From Tubiluchus corallicola (Eukaryota; Animalia; Priapulida), in the NCBI GenBank assembly GCA_030141605.1, contig JAQGDQ010000798.1, positions 1 to 31,869 on the forward strand: DNA of 31,869 nucleotides, read 5' to 3'. Under the pieces are notes generated by a model. That model saw only the letters and a list, made by a program, of their open reading frames with translations. It was not told where the DNA came from and did not search any database. A program made the translations under genes and the position numbers. This document shows positions 6,570 to 31,288 of this stretch, in pieces (the first letter of the stretch is position 1; every line of letters begins with the position of its first letter).

Positions 6570-7040
6570 TAGAAAGCAACAAGCAATGCATGCTTTTCTT
6601 CAGCACAAGAATGTGTTAACTAGCAAGAAATTAAGTCTTGACATAAGACTTTGATTATTTAATACTTACGTTACCAGCATATTTATGTACAAGTTTGACA
6701 CATGATTAACGATTACTCAAGAAAAGCAGGTTGACACATTTCATAGAAGTCTTTTTAGGAAAGATTTAAAGATAAGATGGCCATACATAATCAAAAATAA
6801 AGATTTATACACCAGAACAAAAGAAATTTATTGGAGTTCAAAAGTCAAGATCCAAAGATTAAGATGGCTAGGACATCTTCCAAGATTACCAAATGAAGCA
6901 CCAGTAAGAATAGCCTTAAAAGCCTTAAAACCTTCGAAAAAACCACCTGGAAAACCTAAAGCAACTTGGATAGCTAAGATAAATAAAGATGTTCAACAAC
7001 TTCAACCAAGTCTATCTTTAGGAGTAGAAGAACTTATGAC
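6570..7040 (+). mobile_element. Decayed RTE-clade non-LTR retrotransposon 3' fragment
   Basis: Translates with stops to ...LFNTYVTSIFMY...KQVDTFHRSLFRKDLKIRWPYIIKNKDLY...RLRWLGHLPRLPNEAPVRIAL...PPGKPKATW, typical of the post-RT region of RTE LINEs. Confidence 0.75.
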
Positions 7041-7581
7041 AAATAAATCAGTCATTTGCAAACTTTCAACAGATATATGTAAGTTTTATCATGCAAAAAA
7101 TGCAGTGCGCTTATTACGAGACTACAGTGTCCTTGCCACGAAATGCCAGGCCCAAGTTTGGCTGATTTGGCGTCGGTGACCTTGGAAATATAATGCCAAG
7201 CATTCAGACTGAAACGCTCGGTGCTCCTGAGACGTAGTGTACTTAAAGAAAAGACTGTTTGCCTTCTTAACTACGAGCGCCCCCTGCAAGCAAACTTGGA
7301 AAACTTCACGTTATGTATGTTTCCAGTTCTGCCCATGGTGTGTAACACACCGAAAATGCAAAAACATTACAACTAAATATTAAATCTCTTCCGTGAAATC
7401 TGAAAAAAAAACAATAACGCAGCAATAATGACTAATCTTGTATTTTCAACATTATTAGCAGTATACAAGCACTCACAATTCTTTTGGTGCTCCTACAAAA
7501 TCTACTGAGCTTAATTAGTAGGGACAGAAACTTCCATCTACAATATTTCACAGAAGTGTCTTTAAACACTAGTTAACTTAC

Positions 7582-8033
7582 AGGACAAGAAAATGGCCAA
7601 CCAAAGTAAGCCTCAGAAAATTCGCAATAAAAAGTTATATCACCTAAGTATAATCTTAAGCGAGTAAAATGCTCACGTTTTCGCATTTACTCCAACTTTT
7701 GTAAAATATTTCAATAGCTGCCGTTAACGTTGGCGCAGACATGTTTCATTTAGTCCGCCAGTTGAAAAGCCAGCATGTGACTGATCACGTGGCATGACAT
7801 CACTGGAACACAGTCGCAGTGAGTTCTGAGCACGTGTACTATAAATATTTGTGTTGTGGTTTTTTGACGCAAATATGGCGCCGCCGTGACCGTCTCGCGG
7901 GAGTATTTGAAAAGAAAACAAACAGGAAATTCTTTTAACGTGAGTACGACAAACGCTTAAGATTGCCTCTAGCTGTTATAATTCTTTAGCGAAATGTTCT
8001 GAGACTTGCTTTAACTAGGCCTTTTGCTGTCCT
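7582..8033 (-). mobile_element. Kolobok-like MITE family 1, near-complete copy
   Basis: Left ttac|AGGACAAGAAAATGGCC, right GGCCTTTTGCTGTCCT|ttaa: imperfect TIRs with TTAA-like flanks. Inverted homologue of 1354-1801. Confidence 0.78.
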
Positions 8034-9170
8034 TTAACCTTATTGATAATTACTCATTTGAAAAGCATTATAACTTTGCAGACGTTCTCCAATAAAACAA
8101 CACAAGGCAACAATGAGGACAAATAACTTTTTAATACCATTGCAAATTTGTTAAACGTTTACTATGGACCAAACTGAGTAAAATATACCACAGGCAAACT
8201 CGATTCACTAACCAAAAATGCAAATATTTTCAACTGTAAAATCTGAAACAGGGTAATGCAGTTCTGAATAATGTCAACAATTTTAATTCCACAAAGGTTA
8301 TAAACTGGTTTAACCGATTACTTAGCTAACAATGACTAAGAAATCAACAGGAGTAGGACTGATTGTAGAGCATTACTTCAAGTTCAGAAACAATTATAAC
8401 TCAAGTTCAAAAAGCATTATAACTCGAGCTCAGAAAGCATTATCTGGCAACACTACTAGCATTATACATTCACTAAATTTGTAAATGTACGGTAATAACG
8501 ACATCACTACAACAACATGATATAAAACACGCGTATTTTACTTTTAATGTAGAAAAACGAGAAATTTATCTTGTCATATCGAAAAACTTTTCCAAAAAAC
8601 AGCATAACTATAACGACTGCAGTGTGTACGTACTTGTTCTGAATGAAATTAAAAATAAGTTTCGATTACATTAATCATGTGATTCAAAATGATCCACGCC
8701 ATTTGCCATTACCATGCAGCTATACCTTCCAATGTTCTTTATTACTTAGTTCTAATCACATAATCGATATCGATCCAATCAATATGCAAATATTGACTTG
8801 CTCTCGATTACGTATGGCAATTTTTCGGACCATTACAGAAAAGGCAGTGGCTACAATCTAATTACGATAATACCAATATTGCTCTACTAGCGCCAAGCAG
8901 TGTTTAATATTACATTGTATTCATGAGCAAAAGTTACAATGTTTGAAGTTTTTAGGCAAATATCAAATGTATAATAATTGAAAATACTGGAGGGCAGATC
9001 TTAATTCAGTGTCAATGTACGTTTTATATTTACGTCGACTGTAGCTTATTACAGAAAAGTAAGTATTTATAACAAACTAGGTAAATTGCTGCGCTTATAA
9101 AAGATTGCAATTAACTTACATATAAATTCTTGATTCTATTAGTAAAATTCGCTAGTATTTTTTTCATAAA

Positions 9171-10461
9171 CAGTAAACCATGTGCATCTTACAGCCCAGC
9201 AAGCTGCACAGTACTTGTGCATCTTACAGCCCTGCAAGCTGCACAGTAAATGTGCATCTTACAGCCCTGCAAGCTGTACAGTACAACATGTGCATCCTAC
9301 AACCCTGCAAGCTGCACAGTACATGTGCATCGTACAGCCCAGCAAGCTGCACAGTACATGTGCATCTTACAGCCCAGCAAGCTGCACAGTACATGTGCAT
9401 CTTACAGCCCAGCAAGCTGCACAGTACATGTGCATCCTACAACCCTGCAAGCTGCACAGTACATGTGCATCTTACAGCCCAGCAAGCTGCACAGTACATG
9501 TGCATCTTACAGCCCAGCAAGCTGCACAGTACATGTGCATCTTACAGCCCTGCAACCTGCACAGTAAATGTGCATCTTACAGCCCTGCAAGCTGCACAGT
9601 ACATGTGCATCGTACAGTCCTGAAAGCTGCACAGTACATGTGCATCTTACAGCCCTGCAAGCTGCAGTACATGTGCCTCTTACAGCCCAGCAAGCTGCAC
9701 AGTACATGTGCATCTTACAGCCCAGCAAGCTGCACAGTACATGTGCATCTTACAGCCCTGCAACCTGCACAGTAAATGTGCATCTTACAGCCCTGCAAGC
9801 TGCACAGTACATGTGCATCGTACAGTCCTGAAAGCTGCACAGTACATGTGCATCTTACAGCCCTGCAAGCTGCAGTACATGTGCCTCTTACAGCCCAGCA
9901 AGCTGCACAGTACATGTGCATCTTACAGCCCAGCAAGCTGCACAGTACATGTGCATCTTACAGCCCTGCAACCTGCACAGTAAATGTGCATCTTACAGCC
10001 CTGCAACCTGCACAGTACAACATGTGCATCCTACAGCCCTGCAAGCTGCACAGTACAACATGTGCATCCTACAGCCCAGCAAACTGCACGGTACGTGTGC
10101 ATCCTGCAGCCCTGCAAGCTGCACAGTACATGGGCACCCTACAACCCTGCAAGCTGCACAGTACATGTGCATTCTACAACCCTGCAAGCTGCACAGTACA
10201 ACGTGTGCATCCTACAACCCTGCAAGCTGCACAGTACAACGTGTGCATCCTACAGCCCTGCAAGCTGCACAGTACAACGTGTGCATCCTACAGCCCTGCA
10301 AGCTGCACAGTACAACGTGTGCATCCTACAACCCTGCAAGCTGCACAGTACAACGTGTGCATCCTACAACCCTGCAAGCTGCACAGTACAACGTGTGCAT
10401 CCACAACCCTGCAAGCTGCACAGTACAACGTGTGCATCCTGCAGCCCTGCAAGCTGCACAG
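9171..10461. repeat. 35-bp minisatellite (TGTGCATCTTACAGCCCAGCAAGCTGCACAGTACA), with 33- and 38-bp variants
   Basis: About 36 head-to-tail copies with no unique spacers. Confidence 0.97.
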
Positions 10462-10896
10462 CTTGAACCAAGAGTGCTGTACAAAGATACATCGTGTAAC
10501 GGGAAATATATACAAACACTACTAGCTACTTCAACTATATAAGATCATTTACAATTTAAACATTATGATAATAATACACAACGTGCGAATCTAAAATTGC
10601 TTAATTAACATTTTAAAATCTTTATCTATAATGGTTCTATATATACTGAAAAACTTCAAAAAATTACATGCTTTGCATAACACGGACACTGTAATAATGC
10701 GACGACAGTGAGTTAGGTATATCTCCGCAACTCGCATTTAATTAATTTATTTATTTACACAACAAACAATCAACGATTTTTATATGAAACTATATCAGCC
10801 TTCGTTAATGTCTTGAACACTGCAGATTTTGCACACTTATTATCAGCATGCCAATTAAAATCTATGACAAAGTACGAAACAAAATCATCGCTAACA

Positions 10897-13992: not shown

Positions 13993-14616
13993 GAATATTT
14001 TACAGTTAACATAATTAAATTCATCTTTTCCAAATAATAACAACTTCTACAGATCATTAGTTCCTAAGGCAGTTATATTGAGGCTTTCAGGCAGGAGTAT
14101 TTCATTTAGTTTATCAAACATTTAGTTTAGCAAACATTACAACCCTAATCTGTTGATACAATGGACAGTGCAAGAAAAAGTGTTTGATTGAAGCGAAAAA
14201 CCAAAAAAATGGATTTTTTTAAAATTATTTTAAATGTTTTCCGAGAAATGTAAGTTTAAAAATGCTTTCGTAAAGTGCTAGACATTATTTAGAGGTCATT
14301 CGCTTAGAAATAGAGCTGCTTTTCTTTAGTTGTTACAGATGAGCAAACATGGCTTTCACGACGAACAGTTTTTGAGAAAATGATTTATTAAAAAAAGAAA
14401 ACTGTGGCTTGCAATTGGTGCCAGAAAAGTTTCCTCAAAATATCTAAACTTTGCAAAGTTTTTAAAAATACGAACACTAAAAATGTTTATTTAGGAAAGC
14501 TGTCATATTTAAGGCTGGTGGATACCCTGTAGTTCTCACGCTGCTAAAACTGCTTTGGAATGCGCTGAACCACTTCAAATGAGGAGATTATTCTAATCTT
14601 ACTTTGTTCGGGGGCG

Positions 14617-15350
14617 CTACCTGTGGTTCAGGTAAACACTTCACAAGGCTTATAATTGAGCTGCTTCCTTGTGTGCAGAGAGCATGCCTCAAGTGGTCAA
14701 AAGTGGTGGTCATTATCGTTGCTTTTTCAGAACTGTTGAAGATTAAAATCTTTCTTTGTGTAAGGGGATACAACCTGCCGCTCAGGTAAATACTTAACAA
14801 GGTCTATAATTACGCTGCTTCCTTGTGTGCAGAGAGCATGCCTCAAGTGGTCAAAAGTGGCGGTCATTATTGGTGCTTTTTCAGAATTGTTGAAGACTAT
14901 TAAAATCTTTCTTTGTGTAAGGGGATACAACCTGCCGCTCAGGTAAATACTTAACAAGGTCTATAATTACGCTGCTTCCTTGTGTGCAGAGAGCATGCCT
15001 CAAGTGGTCAAAAGTGGCGGTCATTATTGGTGCTTTTTCAGAATTGTTGAAGACTATTAAAATCTTTCTTTGTGTAAGGGGATACAACCTGCCGCTCAGG
15101 TAAATACTTAACAAGGTCTATAATTACGCTGCTTCCTTGTGTGCAGAGAGCATGCCTCAAGTGGTCAAAAGTGGTGGTCATTATTTTCAGCAGTTTTTTA
15201 ACAAAACTGAACTCAGGCGAGATTGTTGAAGATTATAATCTTTCTTTGTGTGCAGGGCATGAACCGCGCACTCAACTCAAACACGTCACAGGATTTGTAA
15301 AGTCATTATAAGCTGCTCTTTGAGTGGGGAGAGCACCACAGGTGGTCAGT
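14617..15350. repeat. 154-157-bp tandem repeat, ~4.5 copies
   Basis: ctgcttccttgtgtgcagagagcatgcctc recurs at 14661, 14815, 14972 and 15129; a degenerate copy lies near 15313. Confidence 0.95.
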
Positions 15351-16873
15351 AATTTGGCCTTTTGTGTTATTTTAAGTTCTTTTCTAAGCATCGCAGCTTT
15401 GAGAGGCAATGATGAAGTAAACTGACCATACGCATCACTTCCTGTCAAGATTTTGAAAACATTAATGAAAACTTAAGTACATACTAGTCTTTAATGACGA
15501 GTAGCTTTCGTGGAATGAAAGTAAAGATTGCAATATTCTATCAAAAAGGGAGTACTGCTGATGTGCTTGACGTGCGCAAAATGAAAATGTAAAGTCTAAC
15601 ATTGACTTCATATTTGATTTCATAAATGACTCAGTTTAATCGGTGAACTTAAATTACAAACAAAATTTTAGATAAGTTTGCAAATTAGTAAAGCATGACA
15701 CTGTCATACTGACAAAATCCTTTATAACATTCTCTAAATTGACTTTAAACAGACTAATTAATTAAGCGTAGTTATTGCTAAATAATTATACGCAATATAT
15801 AAATATACATATATGAAAAAAGACGTTCTGGCACCGCACTGTATATAAGTTGTTTGAGACCTCAAGCATTTTGACAATTCTTCTTATCCATTAATTATGT
15901 TTACTGTTTAATTCTGACATACACACTTCATCTTCACTTCCTGTGTCCCCTTAAATTTCATATTCATCAGCTTCAAGCTTAAATACATGTACAGCAAAAG
16001 TGGCCGCCATATTTTTAAATGAAGAATGCCCACAACTGTGAAATTTCCTCAATAGATCGTTAGAAAAATCACTTTGCAGAGCTATAGGCTGCAGCTGCAT
16101 GTTTGCAGCGCTTTTCAGTCATCAAAGTAGAAAATATGATGTTGCCAGAATGTAAAACGCTGCAATGTAAAATTTTGCCTACATAAAAAGACCAAACCGG
16201 GTAATAAGTTGCCCCACATCAGGTTAACCCATATTTGGCACTCGTACTTTGTAAGAAAAGTCTGAGGAATAGTTTTTAACAAAGTCGAGATATGATGGCA
16301 TAAATTGAAAAATATTTAATCACCACTATACTTTCGTCGTCTTCATCAATATAAAAAAACTGAGCAAAAATTGCTGAGGGAATTTTTAACCCAACTTGGT
16401 CGTCTAAGGGTTAAAGTATTAGTTAGGTGAAGCTTCCGTAATATAATTATGTAGTACTGTGTAACTTTTGCCCCTGCAATTAGAGGGTCTCGTTTGAAAT
16501 AAATTTCTAGATAAAGATATAGTAATAACAATGTAATCTAATTCTTTTAATGATTAGAAACAGGAGATGACAGTACAGGGAGTTTTTTAAATTTTTGAAT
16601 GGTGGTGAAACACGACTAACCCTAAAGTAGGCACTGATAATGTTTACATTTCGCTGCACGAATCGGTCATGCGATTCTGAAAAACTAATCCGTGTTTACA
16701 TTAAACCGCTAAACGTTTTCGTTTTGGCTGCATTGTAAACATGTTATTAGTTGAAATGTCATTATGTCCGTTGACGCCACAAACATTTTAAAACGATTTT
16801 TAATTTACCCATTCACTGTTGTTATGGTGCTTCACAACAAGCAAGAAAAGTATCACCCACGCTGCTCTTTTTA

Positions 16874-17408
16874 ATGTTACTACTTTTGGTAGTTATTTTC
16901 GTGCTGTATAAATGTGAAAACAGTCATTTAGAGATTCAGATTTGCTTTAAAAATTGCTCCTCTCTTACAAATAGTTTAATGCACAAATCATCAGATGAAA
17001 TTTTGCTATTTGTTGGAATTATGAGTTATTCGATGCGAGTGGACAGACGAAATGCCGTTCGATCAACATGGTTGAAGTGGTGCAAAGGCCTAAACAACTC
17101 GGTTTGCTTGTTTTTTGTTTCAATCCAAGATACGTATGAGAACAAATATAACTATTCATTGCTGCAACCTCTGCTTGAAGAGAAAAAATTACACAGTGAC
17201 TTGATACTAGCAGAGACACCTGATGGTATGAATTTTGGGAAACGGATGACTTGGATGATGAATTGGGCTTCGGAAAGATATAATTTCAAGTACTTCTTAC
17301 GACTAGATGACGATGTTTTTCTTTGCATAAGAAAAGTAGGAGACGAACTTGCTCATTTTAAATTCAGAAAAGTTAATTGGGGCTTCAGACTCTGTGAAAA
17401 AAAGGAAG
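16874..17408 (+). CDS. GT31 family beta-1,3-glycosyltransferase-like (Galactosyl_T), exon 1
   Basis: N-terminal signal anchor LLLLVVIFVLY; motifs LFVGIMS, RRNAVRSTW, EE...DLIL, K...MNWA, FKYFLRLDDDVF (DxD). Donor G|GTTAGT at 17408/17409. The true start may be upstream. Confidence 0.88.
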
Positions 17409-18095
17409 GTTAGTAAAGTCAATTTTAATTCTTGTAGCTGATTAGTAGCCTATTGGCGACCCCCTCATATAAGCCGAAAAAAGAGGTTTTTGTTTCTTAA
17501 CCTTCTTGGATATCCACAAAAGTGCTGATATTGAAATGATCCATACCCATAAGTCAAACAGCTGCATTTCCAAAGACCCCTTACCAACCTATTGAATAAA
17601 TCTAACTGAAGGGTCAAAAAGGTTTTACAGACTTTTGAATATTCATAATTATAGCAGATGACGCCGTAGAAACAAAATAATTCATTTGTCTAGAATACTC
17701 ATGCTTTTATGTTGCGTGACTAGTTTGTTTTCAATGTGGTGGTGTCAAAATACGGATGAAATGTAAAAACATGTAAGCAGATTCAAAAAGTCGCCTTTGT
17801 GTTTGTGAAATGGCAATCGTGGGCATGTGTTCACAGAGCACCCAGCTATACGTGTAAAGACTTGTTTGTGTTGGCGGATCCAGGCAACGAGTATCCTAGG
17901 GTAAATAGAACCAGAGCCGAGCTGGAGGGAAATTCTCGACATAAGTGTTTCTTTTTCAATGATCCGTTTATACATAGTAGGTGGTACAAATGCAAAGCGT
18001 CCAGATTCATCAGTTATAATCGGTTTATTATAAGTGGGGTACAATGATGTAGTGTGACAAGACGAAATATCGTGACTTGCAGAAGAGCTGACGGT

Positions 18096-18165: not shown

Positions 18166-18261
18166 TGGATTCGTTTTCTAATGTTTTCTAAATTAGCACA
18201 TTTTCCCAGTTAAGTTAATTTAAAATTCACTTTTAATTGAGAAAATCTTCATTCATTATAG

Positions 18262-18746
18262 GTAAAAGGCAGATGGAGGAGTTTTTCTTCCTCGTATCAG
18301 CAGATATAGTGCAAGAAATTTTAATTAAACTTCACGCTAGAAATCTAAAGTGTGATCTAACTGGGAGTATATCAGCAGCAATATGGCTTCATCATATGGA
18401 TAATATTACATACCTGGACGACAACGAAAGATTAGCTATTTTGTTTGAAAGCCATTTGAAATATCGAGGTCCCACAATGTGTGACAAAATCCTTGCAGCC
18501 CATCGAATTTATCCACATGAGATGGTAAAGTTATGGAACTTAGTTAGTGAATCACCACAGCTCAAAAATTACACCAACAGTTTCTTCAGAAGTTGTCCTA
18601 TGGTAGAACATATATACTACAGCGACAAAAAATGGAAGTACTGCCACAACGAATCTTACTCAACTCTGCCATTTCATGAAGGATTTGAGAAAAGGTTTTA
18701 CCAAAACATTCACAACGAAACAAGAGGTAGAAACATACACATCTAA
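18262..18746 (+). CDS. GT31 family glycosyltransferase-like, exon 2
   Basis: Acceptor cattatag at 18261, phase 1 compatible. Reads GKRQMEEFFFLVSADIV...AIWL...DDNERL...CDKILAAHRIYPHEM..LW. The spliced CDS is 1020 nt (339 aa). Confidence 0.82.
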
Positions 18747-19019: not shown

Positions 19020-19370
19020 AGAAAAAATAAGTTAAGAACCCACAGAACCTTCAAAACCCAATGTAAAATGGAAAACAAAATTCACTAAACTTAGAATAAG
19101 TTCTCATAAATTGCAAGAACGCAAAAAATTCCAGCAGAGAATCGAATATGTCAATTTTCTTTAAAGTCAGAATTAGAGGATAAACTTCATTTTGTATTAC
19201 ATTGTACTTTATATGACGACTTGAGAGCTAACTTATGTGAAAAACTGAAAAAGATTATACCGACTTTTGCTGTCACGGCTAAACAAGAGAAATTTAAGTC
19301 TTTAATGGATCAGAATGGCTCAGATGTTGTTAAAATAATAACCAACTTTGTATTTAATGCAATAATTTAC
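19020..19370 (+). mobile_element. Decayed non-LTR retrotransposon 3' end (CR1/L2-group-like C-terminal zinc-finger region)
   Basis: Fragments KNKLRT...FK, FTKLRISSHKL, RICQ, EDKLHFVLHCTLYDDLR match the LRxSSHxL...C..C...ED..HF.L.C..Y..LR motif. Confidence 0.7.
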
Positions 19371-19377
19371 ATAACAG

Positions 19378-19666
19378 TGTTGATATTTAAATTCCATGAA
19401 AGTATTGACATTTAAATTCCATGAAAGTATTTATACTTTAATTCCATGACAGCATTGATACTTCCGTGACGATGTTGATATTTAAATTTCATGACAATAT
19501 TGATACTTAAATTCCATGACAGTATTGATGTTTAAATTCTGTGACAATATTGATACTTAAATTCAATGACAGTATTGATGTTTAAATTCTATGGCAATAT
19601 TGATAAATAAATTCCATGACAGTATTGATGTTTTAATTCTGTGACAACATTGATATTTAAATTCCA
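19378..19666. repeat. 25-bp minisatellite (TTGATATTTAAATTCCATGACAGTA), ~11-12 copies
   Basis: Visible directly in the sequence. Confidence 0.93.
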
Positions 19667-21611
19667 CACTCGTGTTTCTGACGTGAAAATGCTGTAAATA
19701 GATTATTGAAAAACTAACACCTGTTCATTATTAACTTCTAAACTGTCCAATTACTCTAAATTAATGTTTCTTAATTAGGGAAACTGTTATCTGTTCTGTA
19801 GTAACGGTATGTTTTGTACCTGTCATATTTTTGCCATAATTTTTTGGTTAGTGCAATAAACTCATACTATTAAAAATGGATTTTTTATGAGCGTATTGTA
19901 CTGTACTGTGCGTATTGAAAATTACAAATAGAAGACAAAGATTCACTTATCATTGAAATTTAACAATTATTCTGATTAAAAAAATAAACGTATTTCCAGC
20001 AAAAGAATGATGCTCACACTTTCCGCTTTATTAAGGTAGAAGGATTGTCGAAATACAGATACAAATAGTCTAGACGGTCATTCATTGCAAACTGTATGCA
20101 AGCCCTGTAATACGTAGATCGCAGAGCGTCATTCAACCAGCAGGGGCCAACCATACAGTAGAATTTGCAGTGTAATTCGTACAGATGATTGACAATTCTT
20201 AGTAAATGTTGATTGCCAGCAAGTTCTAGAGCACATGAGCACTAGAATCATACAGTAATTTAAAGAACTGTTAAAATTTATCAAGTTTTCACGAGGTATT
20301 GTTTTTGGATTTTAAAATACTTTAATTTAAGTTTTCACCAGGGGCGTCGTGCACCAAAAAAATTAGGGGGGCCCGACTGTATATAATGGTGGAACTTAAC
20401 TGTTTAAAAAACGTATAATTTTGAATTCCCACTGTATTTTGCGTGCAAGAAAAACGATTTATTTATTCCCAACTGTCATTTAACTTAAAGCTATAGCAAC
20501 GAAAACTTAATTAAAATTAAAAATTAAATTAAAATTTAATTAAGTACTTATTAGCTGCCAGGAATCCAAAGGTTCGGCGAAAAGACGACTACCAAAACGT
20601 ATCAACCTTTAACTTAATATTTTTAATAATTACTAAACTTTTAATTCCGAGTCAAGATGATGTTGAACAAACAACAAACGTTATTTTTAAATGATTTCTT
20701 TTCACGCTAAAACACCGCTTCAAGTTAAAGACATTTGTTTCCGAGAGGACATGTGCGTTTATAATTTACACTTAGAGACTACATGACGCGGTCCAGACCT
20801 ATTGGTGACGTCATATTCCAATGTCAGAACATTTCGGAAAATGGCGTTATTTTTATAGTGCATACTTCTTTGTGCAAGCGAATCGAATCAGCTGCTTAGC
20901 AACACCGATGCGGACACATACGTGACAATACATTTCTTGTAACTTTTATTATGATATTTTACATTTTATTTAACAAGATTATTAAACAAATTGTTAAAAA
21001 CTTATTATTTAGATTGATTAGATTAATTAATAGATAGATCAATTTATCAACAGTAAGAAGCGTACATTGTTTGTGCGTGTGTCATTTATATGAGAATGTC
21101 ATTTATTCCAAAGAATAAAGGAAAACATTTTCTCTGGAGAGACTGTAAAGAGTGTAGATTTGATGTATAAATAATTTACAAAGACAGGTGACATAATCTA
21201 GGAGAGACAAAAGTATACTAGAAGGAAGATAAATTGCGAAGAAGATAAATTGACATGATTCCAACATTTTTAGCAATTTTAAGACTGATCATTTTGACGC
21301 GTGAATTCCAGTCGAGACGATATGCTCTTCCAAAATTATGTCTAAGACTTTATATATTTATATATAAATATAAATTATGACTTTATATATTATGACTTTG
21401 TATATTTTATTGTAAACTAAGAATAAAAGCATCTTCAAGATTTAGCACTGGTGAACACCACAATAATATTAACAGCTCGTTTCATGCGAGGTTTTTGCAC
21501 GTGACGCATTGTGTGCGATATGTAATAGCTATTCAATCAAGAATTTGTGACCCCCTTAAAGGGCAGAATATCTTTTCTGACAGGATGTTGGAAATGCCTG
21601 TAGATATCTAC

Positions 21612-22105
21612 TAATCAGGTGCTTGAGGTTGACAGTAGATGTCTTCTGACCCAATGCTTGTGGCTGCATTTCTCTATGCCTGTGATGCATCCTAACCAGG
21701 TGCTTGAGGTTGACAGTAGATGTCTTCTGACCCAATGCTTGTGGCTGCATTTCTCTATGCCTGTGATGCATCTTAACCAGGTGCTTGAGGTTGACAGTAG
21801 ATGTCTTCTGACCCAATGCTTGTGGCTGCATTTCTCTATGCCTGTGATGCATCCTAACCAGGTGCTTGAGGTTGACAGTAGATGTCTTCTGACCCAATGC
21901 TTGTGGCTGCATTTCTCTATGCCTGTGATGCATCTTAACCAGGTGCTTGAGGTTGACAGTAGATGTCTTCTGACCCAATGCTTGTGGCTGCATTTCTCTA
22001 TGCCTGTGATGCATCCTAACCAGGTGCTTGAGGTTGACAGTAGATGTCTTCTGACCCAATGCTTGTGGCTGCATTCTCTATGCCTGTGATGCATCCTAAC
22101 CAGTT
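21612..22105. repeat. 81-bp tandem repeat, 6 copies, with a degenerate flank to ~22240
   Basis: Near-identical units caggtgcttgaggttgacagtagatgtcttctgacccaatgcttgtggctgcatttctctatgcctgtgatgcatcYtaac. Confidence 0.97.
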
Positions 22106-25029
22106 GCTTAAGATCGTCAATTCTGATTAGGTGCTCAAAAGTGGCAATAGACATATTTTCCTCCCAGATGCTTGAGTTTGCCAATAGATGTCTTCTGTTC
22201 AGATACAAGATTTTTTTCAATAGATATTTTCTGACCAGATGTTTACCGGATTCTATATGAATCATGTTTCCGAAAATAAGTCCACATATCTAGCAAAATG
22301 TTCATCCATTACCATTTTCTGTACAAATCATTTATCACAAAAATTTACTAAACCTCTGTCTCCACTACTGGCTTTGAACCAATGCAGTTACGTTTACAGC
22401 AGTTTTCATTTTTATATACAAGGTCATAAAATGATCTTCATTAGAATGCGCCCGGCATTAGACTGTAATGAAAGTTCCAAAGGCACAATTACACAAGTTT
22501 GTTTCATTGGAATTGACTAAACGATAAAACTGCAATAAGATAAAACGTTCAAATAAAATGAATTTCAAATGAAAAACAGAGAAAAAATAAAAAATCAAAT
22601 CTAGATGTTGGATTAAATGAGACAAGTAAATGACGTACATCTAGGCGCCAACATCCAAAATTAAAAGACTGAATATAAAATAATTAGCGCTAAGCGTAAA
22701 AAAAGCAAACGCCTGATAATATAACGTGATTTATGGGTGGTAAATATATTTGTTAATTAATGAAATTATTAATCAACCTATGAAATCGAATGAAGAAAGA
22801 TTTTAAACAAACAACTACACTAAAAGAGAGATCTTGTTCTTGCTTTCATAGTGCCGTGCACAGGAAGAAAGGCCGGTTCGCCCTCTGTTAGGAGAAATGC
22901 AAATTCATTACGCTACATTCTACTGCCATCTACAGGCGAATATCGCATTCAGTCTCACCTGCCTCGGTCAGAATGATTCTAATTTATACAGCAACAAAAT
23001 TATAAAACTCATTTTCAAAATTGTGAAACAAACCGTAGGAAATTTATCCGTTTATAAGTTACCGTTGACGTAATTATACACATTTTCACATAATATAAAC
23101 AACATAATTTTGTTTAAGCCTTTTAAATTACATCTGCTATTTATATGAGCTAACTAAGTTTAATTTCTGTCAATACGTCAATTTATATGAATTTTCACAA
23201 TTGAGTAGTTTACATCAGTCAAATGAAATTAAATTTTAATGTACGTGCGTAAAGTAATATTAAAGCACTTGGACAGCAGTCTTTCAAAATTTACACATGA
23301 TGCAAAATTAAAAGAAAAACTGTTCTTCTAATTAAATGTAATTTGGTGCATAAACTTGGTACATCAATATGGTGCATAAATTAAGGCATAATTACTGGGC
23401 TAATTAATTGACAATATTGTTTTAAGCAAAATTACCTAGTCAATAAGTTCCGCAATAATAAAATGAAATAATTATGGTAACAACCACTAACACAGAACCC
23501 TAGAATATTCAGGAAAACTTTAATAGATCATAACAAACGAACCATCATGGAACTCGTGGATCTAAAAACATTTTAACCTAATTAAAGCCATTTAATTAAA
23601 AATAATTCTCTTGTTTTATGGAAAAATGAAAATAGCGACAAAAAAGACGATCAAAACGTGTCACATTTTTTTATTTTTCGGGAATTTTCAGTTTTCAGGT
23701 CGCAAAAAGTAGTTTACTAACACAAAAACGTTGAAAATTTACCACAAACTTTTCTATTCTTTTCGCAATTTTATGCGCAAGAATATTACAGACTTTTTAA
23801 GGCGGAGCAAAACTAAACTGCAGGTAAAATTACCATCCAGAACGTTTCGGCTGTGATTAACAAAGCGAACCTTTTACCGTGCAACATTTAGCGGCATAGA
23901 CTCCACTGCAAAGAGAATTGTGAAGTGTGTGATGCGACGTTTGAAAGTGCACTTGTGTAAAATTGTAAATGTCTTAGTGAAGTGGAAAACATTCTTTACC
24001 GTTGATCTTGAATGCAAAATGTGTGAATTTGTTCATAATGTGAAAAACGTGGTTTTTGTTTTTTCCGGTGCAAAGAAAATTACAGTAATTTTGATTTCTT
24101 GCTTATTAAATTGTGGCTGCGTTGCGTTTAATGTAATTCAATGCAAAACTTTATGTGCGCTGCTATATTTGTGGGTGACTTGCTTATTTTAATCCTCTAA
24201 TAGAAACAGTAATAATAACTTCAATTAATTCATTTTCATTTAGTTTATTTTGTATATTTTATTCCAATAAATTTGTTGGTTTTTTTTTGGTTTCACCGTG
24301 AACCACATTATTAATTATAATTATCCTTATTTTAATTATTAAAAAGACGTTTGCTATGACCAAAGTTAATATGTGTAATTATTGTAAAAATTTGTGGCTA
24401 TTATATTATGGTTCGGTAGTGGTACATAGGATTTTGATGTTTTGTATATATATATATATATACATAAGCTTACTTTCATTTTTATCAAAGATTGGTAAGG
24501 CATCTTTTCTGATGGTGGGCTGGCTTACCAGTTTTGTAAATTTCTTCTCGAAACGCCACGACTTTACAGTTTAATTCGGAAAACTAATTAGTAACCTCTA
24601 TTTAAATGTAAACTTGTCTCAACCAAATAAAGCTAAAGTAAACTTTAGATTAGCGTTGCTAATTAGCAATATTATTGTTAAAGATAAGACACTATTAAAG
24701 TGTTTAATTAAGAATTTCATGCAAAAATTATAGAGCAATAATTAACCTTCCCTACGATTATGGTTCATACTATTCTGGACACGCTTTTTTGTGAATGTTT
24801 CGCTGAAGTTTAAAATGTAAACGTCTAACTGATCAAAATGTCTAACTGACTTATTTTGAATCTACCTCAAATAAATAAAAACACCTCAGACTGTAAAATC
24901 ATTTTAGTATCAATATTTTACAATTAAAGCAAGTGACTTAATGACTAATTCCCCCAGCGAACTATTTTGTAATTTGCATGTAGGTTAGATAATAAGAACA
25001 CTTAAGAATAATAAAGCCAAATCCTTTAA

Positions 25030-25623: not shown

Positions 25624-26579
25624 TGTAGATTTCATATTAACATTCAAGCGAAACAGTAGAGATAAAAACAGACCAGCTTTTGTGAAACTTAAAGGAAGAT
25701 TTTTCATATACTACCAGATTTTCAAGTCTCATTTAAAAGAATTAGCACTGTAAAAGTGTTTCTGATAATTAAAAAATAGTTTAAAAACTTAATTAATGGC
25801 GGCGAGCCTAACAATTCATGACATAACAAACGATCATAAATTTGAACAGCAAAAAATTCCACAAGCGTGTTGCACGTGTTTGCGAAAGCGAGAATTGTAG
25901 TACAGTGCTACTGTAAGATATTCAGTGTGTTCTACTAAAACTAGGCAAGTTTAAGATAAAAATTCAGATATTATATTTACCGCTGTACTCCCGCATGAGC
26001 TGTCGAAGGTGTGCAGTTCATCACAAATTAACACATTTGAACTGAAAGGAAAAACACCTGCTTTTGTGCAATGCGTTTCCAAAATGCAGGCGCTAGTGCC
26101 GTCTAACTAACGAATGGCGAAATGCATGTAACAGTGAAGAACTAGTGACGCGCACGAGAAATTGTGTTTGTGTGGTAAAAATTCTTTCACGTGAGTAATT
26201 TTTAAAAAAAATATTTTTCCTTTCAATATTTTAAAGAGTAGATTGTTTTGACCTACAGTTTAAGACTGGGTTATGTTTTGCTTTAATAAAACGTGGCACT
26301 TAGGTCGTGTGTTCTGTACTCTGACTTCGCCACCTGAAAGCGAAATGGGCTAACATAGAAGAGAGGGAAATTACCCCACACGGGATTCTGGGGACATCTG
26401 TTAAGACTAAACAATATGAACGTAGCTGAGTATTTAGTGTTGAAGAAGAAAGGCATTAGAATTTTAAAGTAATATATTCCATTGTCTAGTGAATCTCATT
26501 TTTGGGTTTTTTAAATGTCTTGAACGAACATTTACATAAGACTAATCACATATAGTCAGCAGCTTCTGAGTTCGGAGAG

Positions 26580-27856
26580 TTAGCTTTGCTTTATCTCATT
26601 GTCGTGACTATCCACTGTGGGCAGAACTGTTTGAACTGGCCATTCTGGTTCTGGTTTGTATAGAAATTCTGGGCCATGCAGCCATCTGACACTTGTGATT
26701 AAATCTCTTGCAGACAAACCTCGCGATGCATGATTTGCTGGATTTTCATCTCCAGAGACATGCCTCCATTGGCTGGGAACTGTTAAGCCGTGTATGGTAG
26801 CTAACCGGTTAGCCACAAAGGTTTTGTATCTGGCCCTTTCATTGTTGATATAGCAAAGAACAATTGTGCTGTCAACCCAAAATGTAGAAGTACCTACAGG
26901 AAAGCTTAATTCCTTCCGTACCATAGAATCAACTTTTACTGCAAGCACAGCAGCCTGACAGTTCGAGGCGTGGCAAAGTGACTTTCTTAAAGGGGGTCAG
27001 TCTTGTTGTACTCACCACAAATGTGCTGACGATATCTCCTGAAGCATTTGTTGATCTAAGATATGAGACAGTTCCAAGGGTTCTTTCGGATGCATCTGAG
27101 AAATGACGAAGCTGGTATAAGACAGCTTCAAAGTTTGGTGGTGTAAAACACCGACTCAGGTGCAAGTTCTTCTAACCGCTTTCCTCATTGTTGTTTCACA
27201 TGATTCTCCAAAGGTTCATTCCAGGATTTCTTCAATCGTGTTTCTTCCTGGAACAGTAACTTCGTTTGCAGGACATAGGGACTTATTATACCGATATGAT
27301 GAAGCCATTACACTCAAAAGACCACGGCGTGTCATCGATTTTTCTTTTTTCCTAACAAGAATACTGAAATGGTCTGCCTCCATGTTCCATGCAATGCCAA
27401 GAACCTGGTCAGCAGGCAAGGTAGAGTTATCTAAATCAATATCCTTCACTGATTTCCCTCTTTCTCCTACAGGGATAGAGTTAAGAACTTTTCGGTCATT
27501 GCTGCACCATTTTGTTAAATGGAAGCCACCATGGTGAAGTAGACTGGTAAGGTGTTCTATCATTGCAATACCTTCCTGAGTTGCTGAAAGAGACTTAAGA
27601 AGATCGTATACACAGAAATTGTTTGTACCACGGCGCTGTTGTACAAAGCTCTGTTGGCTGTTTTCTGGAGTGCATATGATGCAATACTTTGGCACCATAC
27701 TAAGCCAAAAATATGGACTGTCATCCTGTATATTTCAGGTTTTAGTTCTATATTGCCTGCAGGCCACCGCAGGAAACGGAGTACATCTCTGTCACCAGGA
27801 GTGACTCTTACCTGGTAAAATATACTCTGGATGTCAGCAGCGATTGCTATTTTACA
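26580..27856 (-). pseudogene. pol: BEL reverse transcriptase (N-terminally deleted) and RNase H
   Basis: IAIAADIQSIFYQVRV...LRFLRW...YRMTVHIFG; the YVDD motif has decayed to NFCVYDLL; RNase H motifs HFSDAS, PRLEL, WVDS, NPA. Confidence 0.9.
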
Positions 27857-28219
27857 GGTCCAGCATTTCCTTTTTTGAGCAAGTCACTGATTTCTTTGGA
27901 GTATTTGTTGTGAAGGACCTTAAACTTTTTCTTCAAACCTTCAAGTCTCTTCTCTGCTACAACTTTATTATTTGGCAAATCAGGAGATTCGCTTCTCAAT
28001 GGGATATCCATCATATACTGGTTGTGTTCAGTCAGTGGTTGTAGTTGACATATAGTGGTTGTCTTCAGTCAGATGTCAACAGTTCTTACATCCTCGATAG
28101 AAGGTTTATGACTGTTCTCTTCACAAGATTTTAACTGCCAGAATCGCTCTACTTGTTGCTCCAGTGTCACAGGCTGCAAAATGCTAAGGTTACAACTGAT
28201 ATGCTCGGCTTCATTTGGT

Positions 28220-28685
28220 CCAAGTGGTCCATTTAGGGTCCAACCTAAAACACTGAGTGATGCCCAAGGAGCATGTTTAGGTCCTTTTCTTTTTTCATTT
28301 GAAGCGAGAGCTTCAGGCACATCTTGCCCTATGAGAAAGCCAAGTTCCAGAGACTGAGATCTGTCCTGGGCAACAAGTCAATGTCTCCTAAATGCGCCAT
28401 CTCTAACATAAAGGATGGTCTTGCAAAGACAAGAGGGAGATCTATGGTGACATTGTAGTTTAGATCAGACACTTGTAGTTTAGTGACTTTACTCTTCTAC
28501 TGGCTCTGTTTAGCATCAAGCTTTGTCAAAATTAATGTTGGCTAGATAATTAATAACTAACTTTTCATATATTTGGCTAGAGCAGAATGTATTTGTCGAA
28601 CCAGGGTCAAGAAGTGCTAGTGTCTCTAATGGTTTACCACCTGGTATGTTAACAAATACTGGCAAGATAGGCAAAGCTACATGGC
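28220..28685 (-). pseudogene. pol: BEL aspartic protease region
   Basis: ALPILPVFV...TLALLDPGSTNTFCS, then LGFLIGQDVPEA and LGWTLNGP. Confidence 0.85.
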
Positions 28686-28866: not shown

Positions 28867-29068
28867 CGCATGCAAGAAAGTGGAATGTTTTCTCTTAAAA
28901 ACATCACAGCGATTGGCTGACCTACATGATGCACTACTGTGGTTAAGCTTCAGGCAATTAAAACATAGTTTGTGTTGCTTGGCTACCTCTAGCCTTCCAG
29001 GTACAGTTAGCCTATTGAACTTGAAGCATTTCTGAAGCGGATGTGCTTCAGAACACAGGGTGCATGAA
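28867..29068 (-). pseudogene. gag: BEL Gag triple zinc knuckle
   Basis: Manual translation: CTLCSEAHPLQKC...KLCFNCLKLNHSSASC...RCDVFKRKHSTFLH. Confidence 0.88.
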
Positions 29069-29349: not shown

Positions 29350-29755
29350 TTAAACGAGATTTCCTTGAGCATTAATCTCGGACAAATAACCTAAACTTGA
29401 CAGAGTTTCATAACAAGCACGCAACAAGTCTGCATATTCCTGTAATGTCTGATATTCCGCAGCCTTAATGGGTTTTAAATCCGAAATCTGTTTGATCCAT
29501 GCTTGAGTGATATTAAATTCATTTCCAAACCGCTCTTTTAGCATGTGCTTTGCTTTTGTGTAACCTACAACTGGGTCCATTGTCACACAGCAGTCAATAT
29601 AACGTTTTACTTTGTCACTGCAAAACTGAAGAAGGAGTGTTAATCTGGCAATATTGTCAGTTGTGTAATTCTCAACCGTTGTTTCAAACTGTTTAATGAA
29701 GCGACAATACTGCAGTGGGCTGCCATCGAATTTCTCTATCTCGATACCAGGCAAT
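29350..29755 (-). pseudogene. gag: BEL/Pao Gag core (DUF1759-like)
   Basis: LPGIEIEKFDGSPLQYCRFIKQFE...RLTLLLQFC...GYTKAKHMLKERFGN...LQEYADLL. Confidence 0.9.
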
Positions 29756-29989
29756 GGAAAACCATAAAACTGGTAAGGGGGTTTTACTGCTGGCAGAGGA
29801 CTCCCTTTGATTTCAGGTTGCTTGCCGCATAAAGGTGCCTGAAAGGAACTGCATCTATAAGACCTTTCTCGCCATCTATTATGAGCATCAGGAAGAAAAG
29901 AGTCGCTTTCCAAAGGCACATTGAAGCTGGACCTAAAATGTGCTGCTTGAACATTCAAATCTCTTGAGCGTGTCTTTGAAGCCGAGGCA

Positions 29990-30728
29990 GGTTCCACTTT
30001 ATTTGTGTAAAATTTCCACCACATTTTGATAAACTGCCTATCATGTTGTACATTCTGGCACAGTGGAGTAGAAACCTCCTCACTCTGAATATCGAACTTA
30101 TAGCACCACGGTTTATCTTGACCAATAAAATGAACTATCTTAACTTGATCTCGGTAGATCTCTATAGAGTATAGTACTTTGCAGACGTCATGTTATAGGC
30201 AAAGGGGAGGCGATTCCATTTGGTAAAAAACTTATTTAATAGACCCTGGTCCCCTCCGTCAAAACTTGCTTGAGTGTTTGCAAACGATAATAACTCGGTG
30301 TAAGTTACCATGCTTGGTTCAAATACAAACACACCGCTATTAAATGTGCCTGACCAACCAACATCGGTGACAGCAGAAAATTCTTTACGCAAGAATAATT
30401 CGTCATTATTCTGCAAAACTAATGTGTCTGCATCAAGAAAAATGCCCTTGGCATATTGCACCTGACCCCAGCAGTGAAGCTTTGAATAAGTGCAGTGTAG
30501 TTCGGGTCGCTCACAAAGAAGCTGCGTATCTATGTTTTGGTTCTCCCATCTTCCAACAAGCTCAACTTTGTCATAAACAGTGTCAAGTTGTGATATCATA
30601 AATGAGGAAACTTCATTCGTTACCATGATAACCATAGGGTGTTTGGTCCTAGTGGCTTTCAGAGAATGTGCTAAAACAGGGGCACTTTTGGCATAAAAGT
30701 CATTAGTGGCTAACGAGATATGTACTTC
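29990..30728 (-). pseudogene. GYG: Glycogenin-like GT8 catalytic domain embedded in BEL gag (intronless, one frameshift near 30160)
   Basis: LATNDFY, VLAHSL, RPELHCTYSKLHCW, FLDADTLVLQN.DELF, D.GW...FNSGVFVFEPS, SFDGGDQGLLNKFF, LPFAYN; after the shift, KIVHFIGQDKPW...FIKMWW. Colinear with glycogenin from memory of the human GYG1 sequence. Confidence 0.93.
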
Positions 30729-31179
30729 AATTGATTCTTCATAATTAGTATGATTATCTTTGCAATAATTTGCTACCCAATCTCTTGTTTGCCCTCTTTT
30801 GTCAACAAAGAAAACGACCTCGGAAGAACGTGGACTACCGGCTTCAAACTGAGCAAAGACAGTTGCCTCAGCGTCTGCTTGCTTAATTTCAGTAGCTATC
30901 TTCAACTGTTCTTGTTGCAAAACTAACTTTTGCTTTTCTTGTTCGAGCTGCAATTCATTTCATTAACTGCAATTTGGCCTTTTCTGCAAGTACTTGTTGC
31001 CTAATCATAAGAGCACCCTTTTTCGCTTCAGCTGACATTCTTTGTGCTGTTGCCGAAACAGTGGTTGATTTTGAACTACGTGAATGAGGCTAAGCTTTCT
31101 TCTTTGTCCCCACTGTCAGGTATAGCGGCAGGTGTAAGCTGCGTTTCATCTTCAGTTGAGCTGGAAGCTGCACCTTCGC

Positions 31180-31288
31180 TCTGCAACAGCCTATCAATTA
31201 ATTCGTGCTTCCGACCGCTAACAGGTAAACACTTGTCCTTAAGCATTCGCTGTAACTGAGGGACAGTTTTCTTACCTAAATCAGACAC
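31180..31288 (-). pseudogene. SAP domain at the Gag N-terminus of the BEL element
   Basis: (M)SDLGKKTVPQLQRMLKDKCLPVSGRKHELIDRLLQ fits the SAP consensus L.K.TV..L...LK...L..SG.K.ELI.RL. The start codon is GTG, probably a mutated ATG. Confidence 0.8.

Follow-up and report, generated by a model that had tools for sequence, protein, structure and literature searches.

The window, the whole stretch of 31,869 nucleotides from Tubiluchus corallicola (contig JAQGDQ010000798.1) analysed here, carries a decayed BEL/Pao retrotransposon, which occupies the minus strand between about 31290 and 26585. Its order is SAP domain, serine-rich stretch, coiled coil, a glycogenin-like glycosyltransferase domain (GT8), linker, DUF1759, Cys/His knuckles, protease, reverse transcriptase (RT) and RNase H. 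An earlier note had read this minus-strand domain order from the letters alone, and Pfam, translation and tblastn bear it out. The features are:

31181 to 31282, minus strand: SAP domain, head of Gag (Pfam PF02037, E 5.2e-9)
30855 to 31089, minus strand: serine-rich stretch and BEL-type coiled coil, with a break near 30960 (translation)
29853 to 30756, minus strand: segment found only in GT8-bearing copies, consisting of a short 5' linker, GT8 and a BEL-type 3' linker (contig joint 29852-30757 in run X4; loose contig ends at the two positions in X1 and X2)
30165 to 30728, minus strand: N-terminal part of the glycogenin-like GT8, from the nucleotide-binding strand to the acceptor tyrosine, with a break at its end
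29986 to 30156, minus strand: C-terminal part of the glycogenin-like GT8, metal-binding His motif and last helix (tblastn, residues 208-262 of glycogenin P0006; Pfam PF01501 positions 229-251)
29929 to 29961, minus strand: BEL Gag linker-like motif within the GT8-only segment (profile from 24 BEL Gags, score 5.2)
29383 to 29730, minus strand: DUF1759, BEL Gag core (Pfam E 1.5e-4)
28870 to 29064, minus strand: three Cys/His zinc knuckles, the third decayed (sequence; tblastn to BEL polyproteins covers the region)
28200 to 28680, minus strand: aspartic protease region, broken (motif at 28608; tblastn)
26586 to 27853, minus strand: RT and RNase H / Peptidase_A17 region, broken and partly deleted (tblastn, P0121 residues 926-1360)

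A DUF1759-type Gag with Cys/His knuckles is what we take to be a feature of BEL/Pao elements (Belpaoviridae), and it agrees with the Pfam layout of the BEL polyprotein P0121. In tblastn, pol matched the BEL polyproteins P0121, P0126, P0142 and P0410 with E-values down to 1e-87, and the match to P0121 spanned residues 219-1360. The Pfam analysis of the polyprotein suggested earlier succeeded in part: SAP and Glyco_transf_8 were recovered, DUF1759 scored 22.3 bits and thus fell below its cut-off of 25.4, and the broken pol pieces gave no Pfam match, their homology being established by tblastn to full BEL polyproteins. The DUF1759 stretch itself retrieved 3017 relatives at E≤0.001. The coiled-coil region gave weak phmmer matches to 5 of 151 related BEL proteins (four among the matches listed). 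A SAP domain heads one of the 42 related BEL Gags scanned (P0205), to which the SAP of the window has no phmmer match; SAP at the head of a BEL Gag is possibly a second, separate domain gain.

The window copy is a dead element. At least five breaks precede pol, located at about 31085 (between SAP and coiled coil), about 30960 (coiled coil), about 30165 (inside GT8), 29350 and 29085, and many more lie within pol. The copy stops at about 26585, before the integrase, which is absent from it by tblastn; family contigs continue past 26584 with sequence unlike the window. Among the repeats listed, no pair flanks the window copy, whose 3' end is missing, as LTRs would. A very high-copy repeat lies just past the cut-off of the element at 26060-26330, with a summed depth of about 1 million in run X1.

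The remainder of the window holds a host galactosyltransferase ORF (16775-17413; PF01762, E 8.5e-10), which short repeats connect with an ORF without Pfam match (18237-18746), and an exon of a ZP/cuticlin-domain gene (1751-2161; PF25301, E 1.8e-9). Tandem arrays occupy 9170-10500 (units of 35-38 letters), 14588-15212 (157), 19317-19711 (25) and 21530-22156 (81). An inverted pair of repeats of about 450 letters (1354-1801 and 7592-8036, 85-98% alike) is likely a dispersed element. The ORFs 6706-7179 and 19110-19415 resemble by eye the ends of non-LTR retrotransposon proteins, with no Pfam match.

Both junctions of the GT8 domain are in frame, as previously stated. Coiled coil and GT8 share the single ORF 30959-30165, and the C-terminal part of GT8 and DUF1759 share the single ORF 30192-29353 (both minus strand). 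The domain comprises 188 + 56 = 244 amino acid residues, in line with the intronless domain of about 245 residues described in the earlier note, and is colinear in tblastn with residues 8-262 of glycogenin P0006, with no intron. Animal glycogenin genes usually have introns. The Pfam family Glyco_transf_8 (PF01501) was matched on ORF 30959-30165 with an E-value of 6e-11, and its last model positions, 229-251, were matched on the next ORF (E 0.007). Compared with human glycogenin-1 the E-value was 3e-53; identity to animal glycogenins is 50-55%, and the glycogenin DxD motif and acceptor tyrosine are present. A structure model of the N-terminal part (mean pLDDT 67, from an alignment of nine sequences) had glycogenin structures as its top Foldseek matches (E 7e-19), a result expected because of the sequence identity of about 50%.

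The captured piece coincides with the catalytic domain, running from the first strand through to the last helix. A profile of the C-terminal glycogen-synthase-binding region, which detects 117 of 120 long glycogenins, obtained no positive score in the six frames of the window, and the domain is therefore described as glycogenin-derived and not as a full member of the glycogenins. One loop is six residues shorter than usual. We rejected this as a sign of decay or of novelty, since the same loop occurs in nine of 314 glycogenins (L001, L019, L071, L080, P0276, P0278, P0297, P0321 and P0326); these are dispersed over the tree, and the loop was therefore lost repeatedly.

The cargo in the window has no poly(A), the longest A run being four, and no target-site duplication or other abutting repeat was detected at it. 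With poly(A) tail and target-site duplication both missing, a LINE-made processed pseudogene was rejected. Ends at the catalytic domain, the missing tail region and the missing poly(A) and abutting repeat fit capture by template switching rather than an insertion of LINE type. Such capture of mRNA into LTR elements is described in the accessible part of Tan et al. (2016; PMC5131818). The best word shared by both flanks has nine letters and lies away from the domain ends (30779-30787 and 29958-29966, about 50 and about 20 letters from them); a shared word of nine or more letters arose in 72 of 2000 shuffles, and this one is possibly a trace of the template switch and possibly chance.

The trees place the donor differently. 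FastTree put the captured domain near a tunicate-containing group (support 0.86), and IQ-TREE, with 40 chosen sequences, put it near nematodes with weak support. The host parent may itself be a divergent glycogenin. A contig of run X4 that matches only 30663-30707 looks by eye like a normal glycogenin, far in sequence from the captured domain.

Further copies were sought in contigs of public runs; four of the six listed runs, from two samples, contained parts of the stretch. Sample S1 contains pieces identical to the window over 30004-30236, 30269-30383 and 30411-30545, and the internal break of GT8 lies within them (records 3, 4, 6 and 10). Besides the window sequence, at least three other GT8-bearing versions occur in one sample, about 5-14% apart and with different breaks. 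The second version differs from the window by about 4-9%, piece by piece (records 1, 2, 7, 8, 9, 11 and 12), its pieces being treated as one copy on the basis of depth and overlap, which is an inference. It is intact at the GT8 break of the window and has breaks of its own near 30349 and at 30198-30259. The third version, here the 86% copy, differs at 48 of 337 letters with one 3-letter gap (records 5 and 13; X4 record 20). The fourth is a contig that jumps from 30607 to 29544 by an internal deletion of its own. Over 30411-30545 three different sequences are present in one run (X1 records 5-7), and hence more than one diploid locus, provided that the sample is a single animal. GT8 pieces were also recovered from the second sample (X4, records 18-23).

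The 86% copy matches as far as 30725, where GT8 has its first codon; the roughly 550 letters upstream gave no match at 80%. By eye, 19 of the first 30 of these letters are the same as in the window linker, in register; the other loose end of the contig resembles BEL pol just beyond the stop of the window copy. If these resemblances hold, the 86% copy would represent a sister subfamily whose GT8 has been preserved better than its adjoining linker; it could instead be a host retrogene.

A chimeric assembly, joining glycogenin sequence to a BEL element, was one outcome named beforehand that would have refuted the fusion. None of the listed contigs extends over the entire stretch, and run X1 may derive from the same sample as the window. 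Contigs other than the window nonetheless cross both the 5' junction (X2 record 14, 30690-30792; X4 record 22, 30695-30786) and the junction of GT8 with the linker (X1 record 1, X2 record 9, X3 record 21), and a piece identical to the window crosses its internal GT8 break (X1 record 4). This alternative is largely excluded.

Most of the family sequence lacks the cargo, which is therefore dispensable. One X4 contig joins 29852 directly to 30757, skipping GT8, and at each of these positions loose contig ends occur in X1 and X2. Summed depth in X1 falls from about 1850 immediately outside the 5' junction to about 370 immediately within it, depth being a rough guide and no copy number. Backbone contigs of several hundred letters reach very high depth, which suggests near-identical, recent copies; these contigs and the window are about 5% different. 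GT8 and about 130 letters of 3' linker make up the skipped segment, and this linker contains a motif resembling one that recurs upstream of DUF1759 in BEL Gags. Its score of 5.2 was reached in 115 of 5000 shuffles and in none of 197 glycogenin tails. Because a BEL-type motif lies inside the segment confined to GT8-bearing copies, the cargo-less form reads as a deletion; and as the more distant 86% copy also bears GT8, loss is the simpler order. Cargo loss was thus likely secondary: a deletion in what is today the commonest, and likely the younger, branch. Alternatively, the cargo was possibly moved between subfamilies by recombination.

The earlier note had proposed that an enzyme domain was captured in the Gag linker and kept as a fusion. 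This stands in so far as the fusion occurs in more than one copy; the window copy is not one continuous ORF, and the prevailing form of the family is cargo-less. A different history would be a glycogenin retrocopy that entered a dead BEL copy once, the locus then being duplicated as DNA. It would accommodate the fact that every copy observed is broken, and transposition of the other copies was deduced without their flanks. Against it stand the two in-frame junctions, the lack of poly(A), abutting repeat and C-terminal tail, the divergence between copies with their differing breaks and deletions, and the cargo-less form, which misses BEL-type sequence together with GT8. The presence of GT8 in other copies is not what a one-off processed pseudogene would have left, and we regard this history as quite improbable. 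GT8-bearing copies have, we infer from their sequences, transposed separately, and the enzyme domain likely travelled with the element.

Whether the domain was kept for its activity or merely tolerated depends on the record of selection, which is mixed. None of 193 aligned glycogenins (of 240 listed) exceeds 55% identity to GT8, the median for random glycogenin pairs being 65%, and GT8 forms the longest branch in both trees (0.89 and 1.04 changes per site). Over this branch all of 21 chosen active-site residues were kept (21/21), compared with a mean of 14.7 under neutral decay and a value as high in 11 of 3000 simulations. The list was hand-picked and, apart from Y195, D160 and W128, holds positions that we take to belong to the active site. 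Y197 was left out, though it is named with Y195, D160 and W128 in the accessible part of PMC12267440. This second tyrosine (human numbering) falls at the break and is not kept. Column-wide conservation was not significant: 79 of 97 columns, a value equalled or exceeded in 217 of 3000 runs, and 54 of 66 columns, with 444 of 3000, correspond to p 0.07-0.15. Seventeen columns conserved in at least 95% of glycogenins differ in GT8, several of them in what we presume to be the lid region.

Between the window and the second version, five silent and 15 replacing differences are among the 20 sites listed for GT8. Neutral change predicts 21-28% silent, and the linker (4:12) and the backbone (3:9) have similar silent to replacing ratios at the listed sites; the differences therefore look neutral. 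This is the pattern that two dead copies would show, and it does not address the active lineage. Among the 40 of 97 rows listed, two sites are private to the 86% copy, both replacing. Any insert in a one-frame gag-pol must keep an open frame, which is therefore uninformative on enzyme function.

These data leave room for a tolerated passenger, captured in frame, copied with the element and dropped by deletion, its residues inherited from a divergent host glycogenin or paralog. The neutral simulations start from glycogenins of other animals, and such a paralog would weaken them. The neutral look of the differences between copies, the weak column-wide tests, the predominance by depth of the cargo-less form (as a rough guide) and the discordant placement of the donor all favour a passenger, and re-copying of LTR-mediated retrocopies is known from the accessible part of PMC5131818. 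It accounts less well for the retention of all chosen active-site residues over so long a branch, for the match of the 86% copy stopping at the first codon of GT8, for the coincidence of the cargo ends with the catalytic domain and for the lack of any glycogenin nearer than 55% in the 240 best proteins and 80 best loci that were listed. We judge a passenger rather unlikely, and selection likely acted on the enzyme core.

The explanation that we favour, and hold to be probable, is that a glycogenin catalytic domain entered the Gag linker from host mRNA by template switching, was carried under selection on its core and was later lost in the commonest branch. A piece of glycogenin mRNA would have been captured during reverse transcription, the fusion would have passed through rounds of transposition with selection maintaining the enzyme core, and a deletion would then have removed the cargo in the branch that now prevails. 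Glycogenin acts as a dimer and glucosylates its own tyrosine, according to the accessible parts of PMC9188544 and PMC12267440. Assembly of Gag might pack GT8 domains together and so enable glycogenin-like pairing; paired domains could then use UDP-glucose and place short glucose chains onto the kept acceptor tyrosine. Alternatively, GT8 may dimerise with the glycogenin of the host, by which Gag would be tethered to glycogen particles. As the synthase-binding tail is missing, a full glycogen coat is unlikely to arise from the fusion itself. The glucan coat and the targeting to oocytes that the earlier note suggested are conjecture. In the parent element, the fusion is slightly more likely than not to have been an active transferase. 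A changed acceptor is possible by analogy with the related structure 6mw5, which modifies another protein.

More tentatively, and with more doubt than confidence, we suggest that a BEL/Pao lineage made a glycogen primer enzyme part of its Gag; this would be the first self-glycosylating capsid of an LTR retrotransposon, either glucan-coated or docked to glycogen, and the changed residues would mark a new acceptor. If true, a self-glycosylating Gag would parallel the glycosyltransferases of large DNA viruses. A sugar-transfer enzyme in Gag would tie retrotransposon particles to glycogen metabolism and would suggest a way to disguise or to place the particles of the element. Since one genome contains the family both with and without its cargo, how a captured domain is gained, retained and lost can be measured directly.

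That no BEL family with glycogenin cargo had been described, as the earlier note supposed, agrees with our searches. GT8 cargo was found in none of 151 related BEL proteins, many of them partial, and a Pfam scan of 42 BEL proteins with long N-termini yielded no GT8 or other cargo. No GT8-BEL fused protein was among the best 120 of 753 longer matches, and in a further fusion search of longer proteins the one match was a plain BEL polyprotein. BEL sequence did not accompany metagenomic glycogenins in the best 80 of 255 loci, nearly all on short contigs, and viral contigs and a metagenome scan contained no fusion. These negatives are weak, the searches having covered proteins, metagenomes and viral contigs, and animal genomes not as DNA. 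In the openly accessible literature, with Repbase and Dfam outside this scope, no report of a glycogenin or glycosyltransferase in an LTR retrotransposon was found; a family of this kind could stand unannotated in the supplements of PMC3118150, of which a part was available. Five BEL Gags (P0263, P0192, P0241, P0180 and P0244) have 440-590 residues before DUF1759 with no Pfam domain there, and may hold unrecognised cargo in the same Gag slot.

Host-domain capture and in-frame host domains in LTR elements are already known (PMC9289625, PMC5131818 and PMC6431247, each accessible in part). Lasting acquisition of domains by LTR retrotransposons is considered rare, and the published cases that we found concern nucleic acids, chromatin, membranes, apoptosis and ubiquitin. 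Like human GYG1 (PMC9188544 and PMC12267440, in their accessible parts), the captured piece has a GT8 catalytic domain, the DxD motif, the acceptor Y195 and the dimer contacts D160 and W128. Unlike animal glycogenin, it lacks the linker and the C-terminal synthase-binding region of about 34 residues (PMC9188544, accessible part), has 17 strongly conserved positions changed and is fused between a coiled coil and DUF1759. In the orchid Gypsy lineage with an AlkB m6A demethylase, a host enzyme domain was likewise fixed in LTR retrotransposons, an event that its authors call rare (PMC9289625, accessible part). There, the enzyme is a separate ORF in a plant Gypsy element, acts on RNA and is active in vitro, whereas the window holds a Gag fusion with a putative enzyme. 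The Burro giant Gypsy elements of planarians (Arkhipova and Yushenova 2019; PMC6431247) also have in-frame host-like domains in a Gag-containing polyprotein. In the accessible part of that paper, these are apoptosis and ubiquitin-handling domains and an envelope, placed after Gag, and no glycosyltransferase is described; the window element is of the BEL type and carries one sugar-transfer domain before the Gag core. LTR-mediated retrocopies (Tan et al. 2016; PMC5131818, accessible part) resemble the captured piece in being partial, intronless, sense-oriented mRNA pieces within an LTR element, lacking poly(A) and target-site duplication; some were re-copied, and one mosquito case is flanked by a BEL element. 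In those retrocopies, however, the piece is young and replaces part of the element ORFs, whereas the window element keeps all flanking core domains, is fused to its cargo in frame within Gag and carries a domain far diverged from any glycogenin found.
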